Positions 6,001 to 12,000 of a stretch of 64,000 nt of DNA are shown in pieces. The position numbers were made by a program. Source of the DNA: Escherichia coli (GTDB lineage: Bacteria > Pseudomonadota > Gammaproteobacteria > Enterobacterales > Enterobacteriaceae); the NCBI RefSeq assembly GCF_009931435.1, contig NZ_CP043414.1. One strand, given 5' to 3'. The first letter of the stretch is position 1; the number at the start of each line of letters is the position of its first letter.

Positions 6001-9000
6001 TGGCTCAACAGAAAGCAATGTCAACGCTTTTTAGACTGTTGTTTCTCTTTTTTTAGCCAAATCTGCTATCTCTTTATGTGACTCACTTCACTTACATCAT
6101 CTTATTTCTCTTCGTAAAATTACTTTGGAATTAAGTACAATAAGAAGAGGAACATTTATGAAGTCTGCATTGAAGAAAAGTGTCGTAAGTACCTCGATAT
6201 CTTTGATACTGGCATCTGGTATGGCTGCATTTACCGCTCATGCGGCAGATGATGTAAAGCTGAAAGCAACTAAAACAAACGTTGCTTTCTCAGACTTTAC
6301 GCCGACTGAATACAGCACTAAAGGAAAGCCAAATATCATCGTACTGACCATGGATGATCTGGGTTATGGACAACTTCCTTTTGATAAGGGTTCTTTTGAC
6401 CCAAAAACAATGGAAAATCGTGAAGTTGTCGATACCTACAAAATAGGGATAGATAAAGCCATTGAAGCTGCATCAAAATCGACGCCAACACTGCTTTCGT
6501 TAATGGATGAAGGTGTACGTTTTACTAACGGCTATGTGGCGCACGGGGTTTCCGGTCCCTCCCGCGCCGCAATAATGACCGGTCGAGCGCCCGCTCGTTT
6601 TGGTGTGTACTCCAATACTGATGCTCAGGATGGTATTCCGCTGACAGAAACTTTCTTGCCTGAATTATTCCAGAATCATGGTTATTACACTGCAGCAGTA
6701 GGTAAATGGCACTTGTCAAAAATCAGTAATGTGCCAGTACCAGAAGATAAACAAACGCGTGACTATCATGACAACTTCACCACATTTTCTGCGGAAGAAT
6801 GGCAACCTCAAAACCGTGGTTTTGATTACTTTATGGGATTCCACGCTGCAGGAACGGCATATTATAACTCCCCTTCTCTGTTCAAAAATCGTGAGCGCGT
6901 CCCCGCAAAAGGTTATATCAGCGATCAGTTAACCGATGAGGCAATTGGCGTTGTTGATCGTGCTAAAACACTTGACCAGCCTTTTATGCTTTACCTGGCT
7001 TATAATGCTCCGCACCTGCCAAACGACAACCCTGCACCAGAGCAATATCAGAAGCAATTTAATACCGGTAGCCAAACAGCAGATAACTACTACGCTTCCG
7101 TTTATTCTGTTGATCAGGGCGTAAAACGCATTCTTGAACAACTAAAGAAAAACGGACAGTATGACAATACAATTATTCTATTTACCTCCGATAATGGTGC
7201 AGTTATCGATGGTCCTCTGCCGCTGAACGGAGCGCAAAAAGGCTATAAGAGCCAGACTTATCCTGGCGGTACCCATACACCAATGTTTATGTGGTGGAAA
7301 GGAAAACTTCAGCCCGGTAATTATGACAAGCTGATTTCCGCAATGGATTTCTACCCGACAGCTCTTGATGCAGCCGATATCAGCATTCCAAAAGAGCTAA
7401 AATTGGATGGTGTTTCATTGCTGCCCTGGTTGCAAGATAAGAAACAAGGTGAGCCACATAAAAATCTGACATGGATAACATCTTATTCTCACTGGTTTGA
7501 TGAGGAAAATATTCCATTCTGGGATAATTACCACAAATTTGTCCGCCATCAGTCAGACGATTACCCGCATAACCCCAACACCGAGGACTTAAGCCAATTC
7601 TCTTATACGGTGAGAAATAACGATTATTCGCTTGTCTATACAGTAGAAAATAATCAGTTAGGTCTATACAAACTGACGGATCTACAGCAAAAAGATAACC
7701 TTGCTGCCGCCAATCCGCAGGTCGTTAAAGAGATGCAAGGCGTGGTAAGAGAGTTTATCGACAACAGCCAGCCACCGCTTAGCGAGGTAAATCAGGAGAA
7801 GTTTAACAATATCAAGAAAGCACTAAGCGAAGCGAAATAACTAAACCTTCATGCGGCGGATTTTTCCGCCGCCTTATTGAGCGAGATAGCGATGCACGTT
7901 ACAGCCAAGCCCTCCAGTTTTCAATGTAATCTCAAATGTGATTACTGCTTTTATCTTGAAAAAGAGTCGCAGTTTACTCATGAAAAATGGATGGATGACA
8001 GCACTCTGAAAGAGTTCATCAAACAATATATCGCAGCGTCTGGCAATCAGGTCTATTTTACCTGGCAAGGTGGTGAACCCACTCTGGCTGGCCTGGATTT
8101 TTTCCGTAAAGTTATTCACTATCAACAACGCTATGCAGGCCAAAAACGTATTTTTAATGCATTACAAACGAATGGCATTTTATTGAATAATGAATGGTGT
8201 GCCTTTCTCAAAGAACATGAGTTTCTGGTTGGTATCTCGATCGATGGACCCCAGGAGCTACATGACCATTACAGACGCAGTAATTCAGGTAACGGTACCT
8301 TTGCAAAAGTGATAGCAGCCATCGAGCGTCTGAAATCATATCAAGTAGAGTTTAATACGTTAACCGTCATTAATAACGTTAATGTCCATTACCCTCTTGA
8401 GGTTTATCATTTTTTAAAATCTATCGGCAGTAAACATATGCAATTTATCGAATTGCTCGAAACCGGGACGCCGAATATTGATTTCAGTGGTCATAGTGAG
8501 AACACATTTCGTATCATTGATTTTTCTGTGCCTCCCACGGCTTATGGCAAGTTTATGTCAACCATTTTTATGCAATGGGTTAAAAACGATGTGGGTGAAA
8601 TTTTCATCCGTCAGTTTGAAAGCTTTGTCAGCCGTTTTTTGGGGAATGGGCATACCAGTTGTATTTTCCAGGAGTCCTGCAAGGATAATCTGGTTGTTGA
8701 AAGTAATGGAGACATTTACGAATGCGACCATTTTGTCTATCCACAGTACAAAATTGGAAACATTAATAAATCTGAACTCAAAACGATGAATAGTGTTCAA
8801 CTGACAGCGCAAAAAAAACAGATTTCAGCGAAATGTCAGCAATGTGTATATAAACCTATCTGCAATGGCGGTTGTCCTAAGCATCGTATTACTAAAGTAA
8901 ACAATGAGACTGTTTCCTATTTTTGTGAAGGTTATAAAATCCTTTTTTCAACCATGGTGCCTTATATGAACGCCATGGTGGAGTTAGCTAAGAACAGAGT

Positions 9001-12000
9001 ACCGCTTTACCACATTATGGATGTTGCAAGACAAATGGAGAATAATTAATAACGCTCCCTCTTAGCTCCAGTCTTAGCCTCCTTCTTATGACCTTAACAA
9101 GGCACCCGACATAAATTCCTGTCGGGTGTTTCGTCATCATCATCTTCCCTTGCGAAAATCCTGGCTTACTTGGTATGCGTCAGGGTATTAGCAATATCCT
9201 TGATTATCAATAGCATAACCATAACCACTGAAAATGAAATATTTCTTTATATTTCATATTGTTAAATGATACTTAAATAAATTTCATCAGTAAATCATTG
9301 CCATAGATAATCATTGGATGGCACAATCAATTTCCGCTAATGATAACCATTCCCATTACGTTTTGTATGTTGATAGCAAAGTATCTCTGTCTGCTGAAGC
9401 CCTTTTGGCTGCGTAAGAATAATAAAACTTCAGTGTTGTTAATCATTATTATCCTCGCCATGATCCTTGGCGTGGTTAAAATTCAGGTCTGGTTAAACGA
9501 CTGGAATAATGATTTTTTCAATGCGCTAAGCCAGAAAGAAACTGATAAGCTTTGGCAGCTTATCCTTTGGTTCCCTGCCCTGCTGGGGATCTTTGTATTA
9601 ATATCCGTAAACAAAACGTGGCTAATTAAACTACTGACTATTCGCTGGCGCGAATGGTTAACGGATTACTACCTTAATCGCTGGTTTGCAGATAAAAACT
9701 ACTACTTCACGCAGATCTACAGCGAGCATAAAAATACAGATAACCCTGACCAACGTATCGCTGAAGACATTCTCTTACTGATCAGCAAAACGCTCAGCCT
9801 TTCATTTGGTTTCATCCAGTCACTGAGCATGCTGATCACCTTTACCGTTATTCTTTGGCAAAGCGCGGGTACGCTCTCATTCACTGTTAGTGGAACAGAA
9901 TGGAATATCCAGGGGTATATGGTCTATACCGTCGTGCTCATTGTGATCGGTGGAACTTTATTTACCCATAAGGTTGGTAAACGTATTCGTCCGCTTAATG
10001 TGGAAAAACAACGTAGCGAAGCGACATTTCGAACTAATCTTGTGCAGCATAATAAGCAGGCAGAACTGATTGCGCTAAGCAATGCTGAATCTCTACAACG
10101 CCAGGAGTTGAGCGAAAATTTTCATATCATTAAAGAGAACTGGCATCGTTTAATGAATCGCCAGCGGTGGCTTGATTACTGGCAGAATATTTATTCGCGC
10201 TCGCTTAGCGTTCTTCCCTACTTTCTGTTATTGCCGCAGTTTATTAGCGGACAGATCAATCTGGGCGGACTGATGAAATCACGCCAGGCATTTATGCTGG
10301 TATCGAACAATTTAAGCTGGTTTATTTATAAATATGATGAACTTGCTGAACTGGCTGCGGTTATCGATCGCTTGTATGAGTTCCATCAACTCACCGAACA
10401 GCGCCCTACGAATAAGCCTAAAAATTGCCAACATGCGGTACAAGTGGCTGACGCGAGTATTCGTACTCCTGATAATAAGATCATATTAGAGAACCTGAAC
10501 TTTCATGTTTCGCCAGGCAAATGGCTATTGCTGAAAGGTTACTCTGGTGCGGGAAAAACCACACTGCTTAAAACATTATCCCACTGCTGGCCGTGGTTTA
10601 AAGGTGATATTTCTTCTCCTGCTGACAGTTGGTATGTGTCACAAACACCGTTAATCAAAACCGGCTTACTGAAAGAGATTATTTGTAAATCACTTCCCCT
10701 GTCCGTAGACGATAAATCGTTGAGCGAAGTACTGCATCAGGTTGGTCTGGGGAAATTGGCTGCGCGTATTCATGATCACGATCGCTGGGGAGATATTCTT
10801 TCCAGCGGCGAAAAACAACGTATCGCGCTGGCACGATTAATTTTACGACGTCCGAAATGGATATTTCTTGACGAAACTAGGGGAGCCCGCAGAATTCGGA
10901 AAAAATCGTACGCTAAGGTTTTCCGGGCATCCGTAAGGGCCGAAACTTCCCGTCTTCCAGTCTGCGGCTCTGCCGCCAGACGTAATCGCCGGTTAGGTTG
11001 ATGTGCTCCCAGCCCAGCGGCGACAGGAATTGCAGCAGCTCGCCGTCCACCGGCTTGCCGGCCTCGACCAACCCCTGGGTGGCGCGTTCCAGGTACACCG
11101 TGTTCCACAGCACGATAGCCGCCGTCACCAGGTTGAGGCCGCTGGCCCGGTAGCGCTGCTGCTCGAAGCTCCGATCCCTGATTTCCCCAAGGCGGTTGAA
11201 GAACACCGCCCTGGCCAGCGAGTTGCGCGCCTCACCTTTGTTCAGGCCGGCATGCACGCGGCGGCGCAGTTCAACACTTTGCAGCCAGTCCAGGATGAAC
11301 AGCGTGCGCTCGATCCGGCCCAGCTCGCGCAGGGCCACGGCCAGTCCGTTCTGGCGCGGGTAGCTGCCGAGCTTGCGCAGCATCAGCGAGGCGGTGACGG
11401 TGCCCTGCTTGATCGAGCTGGCCAGGCGCAGGATGTCGTCCCAGTGGGCACGCACGTGCTTGATGTTCAGGGTGCCGCCGATCAGCGGGCGCAACGTCGG
11501 GTAGGCTTGCACGCCCTGCGGCACGTACAGCTTGGTTTCGCCGAGGTCGCGGATGCGCGGCGCGAAGCGGAAGCCTAGCAGGTGCATCAGGGCAAAGACG
11601 TGATCGGTGAAGCCGGCCGTGTCGGTGTAGTGCTCCTCGATCCGCAGGTCGGACTCGTGGTACAGCAGGCCGTCGAGCACATAGGTGGAATCGCGGACGC
11701 CGACATTCACCACGCGGGTGCTGAACGGCGCGTACTGGTCGGAGATATGGGTATAGAACAGCCGTCCCGGCTCGCTACCGTACTTCGGGTTGACGTGCCC
11801 GGTGCTCTCGCCCCGGCCACCCGCGCGGAAGCGCTGGCCATCGGAGGATGAGGTCGTGCCGTCGCCCCAGTGGGCGGCAAAGGCGTGGCGATACTGGTGG
11901 TTGACCAGCTCGGCCAAGGCCGCCGAATAGGTTTCGTCGCGGATGTGCCAGGCTTGCAGCCAGGACAGCTTGGCGTAGGTCAGGCCGGGGCTCGACTCGG

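Follow-up and report, generated by a model that had tools for sequence, protein, structure and literature searches.

In the window, that is, the whole stretch of 64,000 nucleotides of Escherichia coli DNA that was analysed, two consecutive genes on the same strand code for a sulfatase and for a radical-SAM enzyme of the sulfatase-maturating type, and both reading frames were confirmed where the original prediction had placed them. In RefSeq, K-12 and N96 both have these two coding sequences, again 51 nt apart, under the product names 'putative sulfatase YdeN' and 'putative anaerobic sulfatase maturation enzyme YdeM'. The gene pair is already known, being annotated in RefSeq, EcoCyc and RegulonDB, and is textbook annotation. 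The features of the two genes are as follows:

6091..6120, + strand: promoter-like site CTTACA-18-TAAAAT, 38 nt upstream of the ydeN start (consensus match only)
6158..7840, + strand: ydeN, 560 amino acids, S1-family formylglycine-dependent sulfatase of the Ser type (ATG at 6158, stop codon ending at 7840)
6158..6244, + strand: Sec-type signal peptide of YdeN, MKSALKKSVVSTSISLILASGMAAFTAHA, cleaved before ADD (read from the translation)
6551..6583, + strand: sulfatase signature S132-G-P-S-R-A-A-I-M-T-G, fitting (C/S)-x-P-x-R-x4-T-G, Ser type
7892..9049, + strand: ydeM, 385 amino acids, radical-SAM/SPASM anaerobic sulfatase-maturating enzyme (ATG at 7892, stop codon ending at 9049)
7925..7948, + strand: radical-SAM cluster motif C12-x3-C16-x2-C19 (CX3CX2C), from the translation and alignment with anSMEcpe
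8660..8926, + strand: SPASM region with eight auxiliary-cluster cysteines, C257, C263, C278, C315, C318, C324, C328 and C345

YdeN matches the Pfam Sulfatase profile PF00884 from end to end (positions 1-301 of 301; E = 1.2e-70; score 238.7 bits, cut-off 25). It shares 99% identity with its K-12 counterpart, and the gene has a dN/dS of 0.023 (window vs K-12). Its signal peptide has no twin-arginine motif, and the cleavage site was placed by the AxA rule, not by a prediction tool. Judging from the signature, Ser132 is the predicted formylglycine precursor, and the window protein and 16 of 16 YdeN orthologues all have S-G-P-S-R. The best matches among solved structures are the S1_19 carrageenan sulfatases 9HH2, 6BIA and 6B0J (E from 1e-51 to 5e-50), which share with YdeN the signature block ...AH..SGPSR.AI.TGR in alignments spanning only YdeN residues 109-436. 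Unlike these enzymes, YdeN carries an insertion of about 27 amino acids after the first metal-binding DD motif as well as an extra C-terminal region, and their substrate specificity cannot be transferred to it. No report of formylglycine or of sulfate-ester hydrolysis for YdeN was found in the literature searched, and to our knowledge neither its activity nor the dependence of that activity on YdeM has ever been demonstrated.

YdeM scores 504 bits against the NCBIfam equivalog TIGR03942 (cut-off 349.45; profile positions 1-362 of 363), a family model that covers the AtsB enzyme class, and it also shows a Pfam SPASM match (1.1e-06); the dN/dS of ydeM is 0.079 (window vs K-12). Residues 4-359 align with anSMEcpe of Clostridium perfringens (PDB 4K36-4K39; E = 1.3e-62 for 4K36), a distant relative (about 215 bits) that is better studied with Cys-type substrates. 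Both proteins have the CX3CX2C motif, the eight auxiliary cysteines and the Asp that follows C278; each of the eight YdeM cysteines, assigned to two auxiliary [4Fe-4S] clusters, is aligned with an anSMEcpe cysteine, and all 11 cluster cysteines are present. We know of no biochemistry for YdeM itself.

The order of sulfatase and then maturase is kept in 16 of 16 orthologous loci from Enterobacterales, Aeromonas, Photobacterium, Anaerobiospirillum and Iodobacter (at one locus, L020, with a fragmented maturase reading frame), and the spacer between the two genes measures 42-69 nt across these lineages with a single exception of 222 nt. Together with the Ser-type signature, the TIGR03942 match and the anSMEcpe alignment, this conserved order gives good support to the enzyme and maturase pair that had been proposed, and we infer that YdeM matures YdeN. 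The atsBA system of Klebsiella pneumoniae is similar in that a Ser-type periplasmic sulfatase, AtsA, and a radical-SAM/SPASM enzyme, AtsB, belong to one operon. AtsB is cytoplasmic and converts the serine of AtsA to formylglycine before Sec export; atsB stands before atsA, whereas in ydeN-ydeM the order is reversed and the sulfatase comes first. Benjdia and colleagues reportedly found in 2007 that Cys-type sulfatases are matured in E. coli without aslB or ydeM. Since YdeN is of the Ser type, only its own formylglycine status, and not general sulfatase activity, would be informative about the dependence on YdeM.

The region between the two genes and the end of the locus contain the following features:

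7841..7891, + strand: ydeN-ydeM spacer, 51 nt, identical in K-12, N96 and Escherichia sp. MOD1
7853..7872, + strand: stem-loop GCGGCGGA-UUUU-UCCGCCGC, 8 bp of which 7 are G-C, with a UUUU loop (from folding and covariation)
7873..7880, + strand: degenerate U-tract CUUAUUGA, 4 U in 8, starting with C
7883..7886, + strand: weak Shine-Dalgarno-like GAGA, 6 nt upstream of the ydeM ATG (read from the sequence)
9103..9128, + strand: 9-bp hairpin followed by UUUCGUC, 3' of ydeM, a probable operon-end structure (dG -14.8, T-score 2.78)

The original prediction had set a GC hairpin at 7853..7873; the hairpin does exist, starting 12 nt past the ydeN stop codon, and its true end lies one base earlier, at 7872. 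It folds with about -16 to -17 kcal/mol and is kept in the MFE and centroid structures of both the 66-nt and the 271-nt contexts. Perfect stems of 8 bp or more, 6 or more of these being GC pairs, occur at 6 loci in the window against a shuffle expectation of 2.2, and the chance expectation of such a stem in a given 51-nt spacer is about 0.002; the other perfect GC-rich hairpins of the window lie mostly just past the ends of reading frames, with a U-tract behind three of them. The hairpin sequence is single-copy in the window with 3 mismatches allowed, occurs at one place per E. coli genome, is not a member of the REP family and has no Rfam match at threshold.

The hairpin might have no function at all, as a chance palindrome or a decaying relic, and two results agree with such a view: folding the isolated region gives a modest z-score of -2.0 (9 of 200 shuffles were equally good), and an unchanged spacer within E. 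coli carries no information where the locus, measured on the ydeM side, diverges by only about 2%. In the three variants sampled from E. coli, nothing but the loop (7861 T>A) or an upstream base (7850 C>T) is altered. Against this view, a GC-rich hairpin stands at the same place in 16 of 16 orthologous sulfatase-maturase loci, its position being fixed while such hairpins are rare in the window, and the stem covaries: among 13 lineages whose flanking spacer sequence can no longer be aligned, 93.8% of the cells are paired and compensatory double changes are seen at 10 of 10 stem pairs. None of 500 shuffles was as good, a count in which independence is overstated since the lineages are related, and slid controls reached 42-60% paired. 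This cross-species conservation with covariation is the decisive evidence that the hairpin exceeds chance, and a functionless hairpin, already disfavoured, is very improbable. Across lineages the stem core contains five G-U pairs versus one A-C, an excess that favours the sense RNA as the folded strand.

The tail of the hairpin had been described as a weak U-tract, correctly so: the T-score of CUUAUUGA is 1.53, whereas three U-tract terminators of the window reach 3.7-3.9. The terminator scan leaves the site uncalled because this tail is too U-poor, with 4 T in 8 where the rule asks for at least 5. Among the 16 orthologues, eight have tails with at least 5 T in 8. The 8-nt tails of all 16 taken together are 54% U, while the remaining spacer sequence is 25% U (Fisher p = 5e-10, with independence overstated by the relatedness of the lineages). 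Four lineages show T-scores of at least 3.2, which are canonical U-tracts like those of the window's own terminators; five of the 16 stay below 1.8, and the U-tract is poor in E. coli and E. albertii.

As regards transcription, AraC, GadX and NagC are reported to repress the ydeN promoter, and a high-affinity CRP site has been described near ydeN. The promoter scan of the + strand found no promoter-like site from 6641 to 8488, an interval that covers the 1.2 kb upstream of ydeM. A mouse-gut RNA-seq paper, working in K-12 BW25113 with an identical spacer and using featureCounts and DESeq2, states that ydeN and ydeM are co-transcribed and AraC-repressed, and both genes are up in its araC deletion strain. 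The average counts published there are 5399.1 for ydeN and 371.5 for ydeM in the araC/malI/gatC mutant, about 10-fold per nucleotide, and 92.3 and 21.7 in the parent strain, 2.9-fold per nucleotide; these are steady-state ratios from one study, with a possibly unstranded library, in which termination and decay are inseparable. It is highly unlikely that the hairpin is a complete terminator of a monocistronic ydeN, with ydeM served by a promoter of its own. The place of the hairpin right after the stop codon is typical of an operon end, and Yersinia array and RNA-seq tables list ydeN and not the neighbouring maturase; nevertheless, the 1.2 kb upstream of ydeM has no promoter-like site, only 19 nt separate the hairpin from the ATG, the U-tract is weak, the paper gives the two genes as co-transcribed, and ydeM rises together with ydeN when AraC, whose action is at the ydeN promoter, is removed.

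Taken together, our findings favour, with a probability of roughly 55%, a single ydeNM unit in which the hairpin serves as a leaky intrinsic terminator and perhaps also as protection for the 3' end of ydeN. According to this hypothesis, and to the literature for its first step, ydeN and ydeM would form a single transcription unit from the ydeN promoter, repressed by AraC, GadX and NagC. YdeN would be made as a Ser-type sulfatase precursor for export by Sec, and cytoplasmic YdeM would oxidise Ser132 to formylglycine before that export. Part of the polymerases would stop at the stem-loop of the sense RNA, which, as a 3'-end hairpin, could also shield the ydeN message from 3' exonucleases; those that read through would go on to ydeM, whose translation would start from a weak ribosome-binding site of its own. 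The outcome would be far more sulfatase mRNA than maturase mRNA, and low ydeM would suit a catalytic, iron-sulfur-rich and oxygen-sensitive maturase that is needed in small amounts. The hairpin most likely keeps the maturase message about 10-fold scarcer than the sulfatase message, and we infer that this drop is located at the hairpin and caused by termination.

Attenuation between the two genes, as it had been suggested, fits the conservation of the hairpin, the U-rich tails of the orthologues, the lack of a promoter-like site in the scanned interval, the joint rise of both genes without AraC and the drop of about 10-fold. However, the E. coli U-tract is degenerate, and differential mRNA decay would give the same ratio. 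The supplementary tables of Adams et al. (2021) and TERMITe that were searched list no mapped 3' end at ydeN or the hairpin; the locus is almost silent there (about 30 reads per 800 nt under those conditions), and this absence is weak evidence because expression was so low. A 90% stop at the U-poor E. coli tail would be surprisingly efficient, an observation that speaks against a leaky terminator.

The strongest competitor of the leaky terminator, although clearly less probable than it, is a hairpin that acts mainly as a barrier to decay. Read-through would then be near-complete, and endonuclease cleavage or Rho-dependent termination downstream, followed by 3'-to-5' trimming up to the hairpin, would remove the ydeM part and let a stable ydeN-only RNA accumulate. 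Rho-terminated transcripts are said to be trimmed back to stable stem-loops, a finding attributed to Dar and Sorek in 2018. The strong stem with its poor U-tract in E. coli and E. albertii, together with the five lineages of low T-score, would suit such a barrier, which explains the RNA-seq ratio equally well, and a Rho-dependent termination region has been reported near the 3' end of ydeM. This region peaks at MG1655 1579674(-), 41 nt before the ydeM stop (Adams et al., 2021), and so lies at the end of ydeM and not at its start. Moreover, a hairpin that did no more than block exonucleases could do without a U-rich tail, while the orthologous tails are enriched in U and four of them are canonical.

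A rival reading, based on the surroundings of the ydeM start, is a role in translation, by which the hairpin could uncouple ydeM initiation from the ribosomes that finish ydeN or shape the standby region of the ribosome-binding site. Between the end of the hairpin and the ydeM ATG there are 15-26 nt in 15 of 16 lineages and 35 nt in L020, and across lineages the Shine-Dalgarno sequence follows directly after the hairpin tail. The start ATG-CAT is kept in all orthologues while the sequence upstream diverges, and several of them have a stronger GAGGAA at the Shine-Dalgarno position, where the E. coli ribosome-binding site is weak. Conversely, none of the folds shows the hairpin paired with the Shine-Dalgarno or with the start codon of ydeM, the U-rich tails are left unexplained, and so is the 10-fold lower ydeM RNA unless secondary polarity is invoked; we consider such a role improbable. 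A comparably speculative idea is that the hairpin is a sequence-specific cis element (core CGGCAGG/CCUGCCG) that accompanied a mobile two-gene cassette for a Ser-sulfatase through four or more orders. A factor would recognise it, or it would be tuned so that both the maturase:sulfatase ratio and the site of synthesis favour oxidation of the serine on the nascent chain, ahead of Sec export. If so, read-through could be regulated, for instance by anaerobiosis or by iron-sulfur status.

New in this work are the conservation and covariation of the hairpin, the U-enriched tails and the ydeN over ydeM drop of about 10-fold obtained from published counts; in the literature searched we found no description of the intercistronic hairpin, of its conservation or of the polarity between the two genes. 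A leaky hairpin between cistrons is an ordinary mechanism of operon tuning, and the added value is small but concrete. The conserved, covarying hairpin offers a simple handle on the unequal levels of a Ser-type sulfatase and of its maturase, a costly iron-sulfur enzyme, and would be the reason that ydeM is often missed under ydeN induction. Cryptic YdeN is a candidate for the use of host mucin sulfate in the gut, and our findings suggest that, when it is awakened, the supply of maturase through the hairpin is possibly limiting. Known cases such as the rplL-rpoB attenuator, the puf hairpins of Rhodobacter and the REP element of malE-malF likewise have a stable stem-loop between cistrons and a commoner upstream message; the ydeN-ydeM hairpin, for its part, is single-copy and no REP element.

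The locus has the Escherichia gene order ydeP-safA-ydeO-ydeN-ydeM-(yneP)-yddA, in an orientation reversed with respect to that of MG1655, and the RefSeq annotations of K-12 and of strain N96, the closest genome, contain the ydeN and ydeM CDS with just these boundaries. The spacer of 51 nt between the two genes holds a hairpin, which leaves 12 nt to the ydeN stop on its 5' side and 19 nt to the ydeM ATG on its 3' side.

Features of the ydeN-ydeM locus (window positions)
6158-7840: ydeN, from the ATG at 6158 to the end of the stop codon, 560 aa
7853-7872: intercistronic hairpin, GCGGCGGA-UUUU-UCCGCCGC
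7892-9049: ydeM, beginning with the ATG at 7892, 385 aa
9103-9128: second hairpin, 9 bp, with the tail UUUCGUC, 3' of ydeM

The original observation of a sulfatase and maturase pair with a GC hairpin between the genes was confirmed, except that the hairpin's end had been placed at 7873, one base too far. The predicted stability of the hairpin is about -16 kcal/mol. The hairpin is kept in both the MFE and the centroid structures of a 271-nt context, and an antiterminator was rejected because this fold contains no alternative pairing that competes with it. Just six places in the 64 kb have a perfect stem of 8 bp or more that includes 6 or more GC pairs; the five besides this hairpin lie mostly directly past ORF ends, and three of them are followed by U-tracts. 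The tail of 8 nt after the stem, CUUAUUGA, is poor, with 4 U in 8 positions and a T-score of 1.53 as compared to 3.7-3.9 for three U-tract terminators elsewhere in the window, and the site was left uncalled by a consensus terminator scan of the window, in agreement with the weak U-tract originally described. Neither a REP element nor a known RNA family was matched by the hairpin. The hairpin also drives a sub-threshold Rfam match to the Salmonella sRNA isrK on the minus strand (7814..7872; 20.3 bits vs a gathering score of 50, E 0.25), which was attributed to chance. A ydeM start at TTG 7877 was also discarded, since this codon is unconserved among orthologues whereas ATG 7892 is conserved. 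Both genes lie in one frame (7838..7894), the TAA being the sole stop, with none more in the spacer; a fusion protein produced by stop-codon read-through was rejected, since the frame relation is different in most orthologues and is regarded as a coincidence.

YdeN is a full-length S1 sulfatase (Pfam match 1.2e-70) with a Sec-type signal peptide, and its signature, S132-G-P-S-R-A-A-I-M-T-G, carries serine at position 132, which makes it a Ser-type sulfatase. Its closest solved structures by sequence are S1_19 sulfatases (E about 1e-51), and relative to these it has an insertion of ~27 residues (residues ~81-108, window 6395..6500), which separates the N-terminal metal-binding DD motif from the remaining sulfatase core. 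YdeM scores 504 bits with the NCBIfam equivalog TIGR03942, whose cut-off is 349, and covers the whole profile; it aligns with the Clostridium perfringens enzyme anSMEcpe (4K36) with an E of 1e-62, and retains the CX3CX2C motif (C12, C16, C19) together with eight auxiliary-cluster cysteines; as judged from its sequence, it is an anaerobic sulfatase-maturating enzyme. To our knowledge, Ser-type sulfatases can be matured solely by radical-SAM enzymes of the anSME kind, so that one would expect a sulfatase of this type to have a dedicated maturase beside it. The proposed enzyme-maturase pairing is supported by the Ser-type signature, the equivalog match and a gene order kept in orthologues; it was already annotated and is not new.

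Orthologous loci were gathered in two ways, by a genome scan with YdeM and from contigs encoding diverse YdeN homologues, and they came from Escherichia albertii, Leminorella, Citrobacter werkmanii, Budvicia, Yersinia, Salmonella, Dryocola, Proteus, two other Enterobacterales, a 565-aa E. coli paralogue, Photobacterium, Aeromonas, Anaerobiospirillum and Iodobacter. Each locus has a Ser-type sulfatase gene followed on the same strand by a maturase gene (in fragments beside the E. coli paralogue), and a GC-rich hairpin inside the spacer. The spacer flanks are unalignable between genera, and most stems have in common the core CGGCAGG/CCUGCCG, with compensatory substitutions. A covariance-model search was dropped because minus-strand matches were mixed in and several loci were missed, and a MAFFT alignment of 13 hairpins was used instead. 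In this alignment 93.8% of cells are paired, and in all 10 stem pairs both partners have changed; not one of 500 shuffles was as good as the observed values, and pairing fell to 42-60% when partner columns were slid as a control. That the hairpin is functionless thus seems hardly credible. The core contains five G-U pairs versus one A-C, counts which favour the sense RNA as the folded strand.

Within E. coli, an 80-nt query matched 5,336 genomes, each match being at least 95% identical, and in three sampled variants the change fell in the loop or in an upstream base and left the stem intact. The 100% identity of the spacer with K-12 was not accepted as evidence, given that divergence on the ydeM side is just about 2%, at which an identical run of 184 nt is unremarkable. 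The locus is present in 5,374 E. coli genomes, and with most of these the region 5700..9400 shares just 90-95% identity; its best match, N96, is 98.6% identical. Protein identity to K-12 is 99.1% for YdeN and 98.7% for YdeM, and the dN/dS values (0.023 and 0.079, respectively) indicate purifying selection on both genes. The dS against K-12 changes from 0.20 in ydeN to 0.069 in ydeM, and this shift, near 7500, suggests a recombination breakpoint within ydeN.

Co-transcription of ydeM with ydeN, as well as direct repression of ydeN by AraC, has been reported (2024 mSystems paper, citing Stringer 2014). Table S3 of the same paper presents mouse-gut RNA-seq of K-12 BW25113 (featureCounts and DESeq2), with average counts of 5399.1 for ydeN and 371.5 for ydeM in an araC/malI/gatC mutant, and of 92.3 and 21.7 in the parent strain. 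After length normalization, the density of ydeM is below that of ydeN by about 10-fold in the mutant and 2.9-fold in the parent, and the K-12 spacer is identical to that of the window. A promoter scan found no promoter-like site upstream of ydeM, and it is very improbable that the hairpin is a full stop with ydeM transcribed from a separate promoter. Repression by GadX, an entry for NagC and a strong CRP site upstream of ydeN are in the literature as well. A search of 3'-end tables, those of Adams 2021 and TERMITe 2025, found no 3' end at ydeN, although the locus is nearly silent in the cultures used; the only entry for either gene was a Rho-termination region with its peak 41 nt before the ydeM stop. 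The searched text of a ribosome-profiling paper and of an fnr/azo-dye paper contained no ydeN or ydeM rows.

Across 16 lineages, the 8 nt past the stem contain 54% U, as compared to 25% in the remaining spacer sequence. Tails are canonical in four lineages (Leminorella, an Enterobacteriaceae MAG, Proteus and Anaerobiospirillum; T-scores of 3.2-4.3), intermediate in seven and weak in five, Escherichia among them, whose tail looks like a shortened form of UUAUUUU, the tail found in Salmonella, Citrobacter and Dryocola. Hairpin and tails have, at the sequence level, the architecture of an intrinsic terminator of varying predicted strength. Leaky termination at this site would attenuate read-through into ydeM and result in less maturase RNA. 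The weak tail of E. coli also fits a barrier to RNA decay, which is possible but rather unlikely; a pure exonuclease barrier would need no U-rich tails, and for this reason leaky termination was ranked first. A translational role of the hairpin is less probable still. Of the attenuation originally proposed, the lower level of maturase RNA is borne out by the counts, and attenuated read-through at the hairpin is its most likely, putative cause, with a probability of roughly 55%. The gene pair itself is known, and its conserved hairpin adds one more case to a familiar kind of device.

The sulfatase is markedly more conserved than its maturase in a comparison of loci L005-L012 with the window (6158..9049): identities are 78-84% vs 64-69% in other enterobacterial genera, 96% vs 88% in E. 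albertii and 68% vs 58% in Photobacterium. At L020, where the E. coli paralogue is encoded, the maturase is split into three short ORFs (4267-5391). The cassette adjoins a transposase in Aeromonas, a Rep3 plasmid replication gene in Proteus and an integrase in the P0072 locus (neighbours at L017 1057-1725, L018 3834-4344 and L021 63-1238); such neighbours suggest that the two genes form a mobile module. The K-12 annotation has a small gene, yneP, that runs across the 3' end of ydeM on the opposite strand. Further along the window, yddA is interrupted by a Tn1721-type tetracycline-resistance transposon (10880..22007), which carries a truncated Tn3-family tnpA, an EamA/pecM-like gene, an MFS tetA, tetR, a full tnpA and an MCP-like gene, and has the following repeats.

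Repeats of the Tn1721-type element (window positions)
10875-10879 and 22008-22012: 5-bp target duplication, AACTA
10880-10917, 16368-16405 and 21970-22007: three 38-bp inverted repeats
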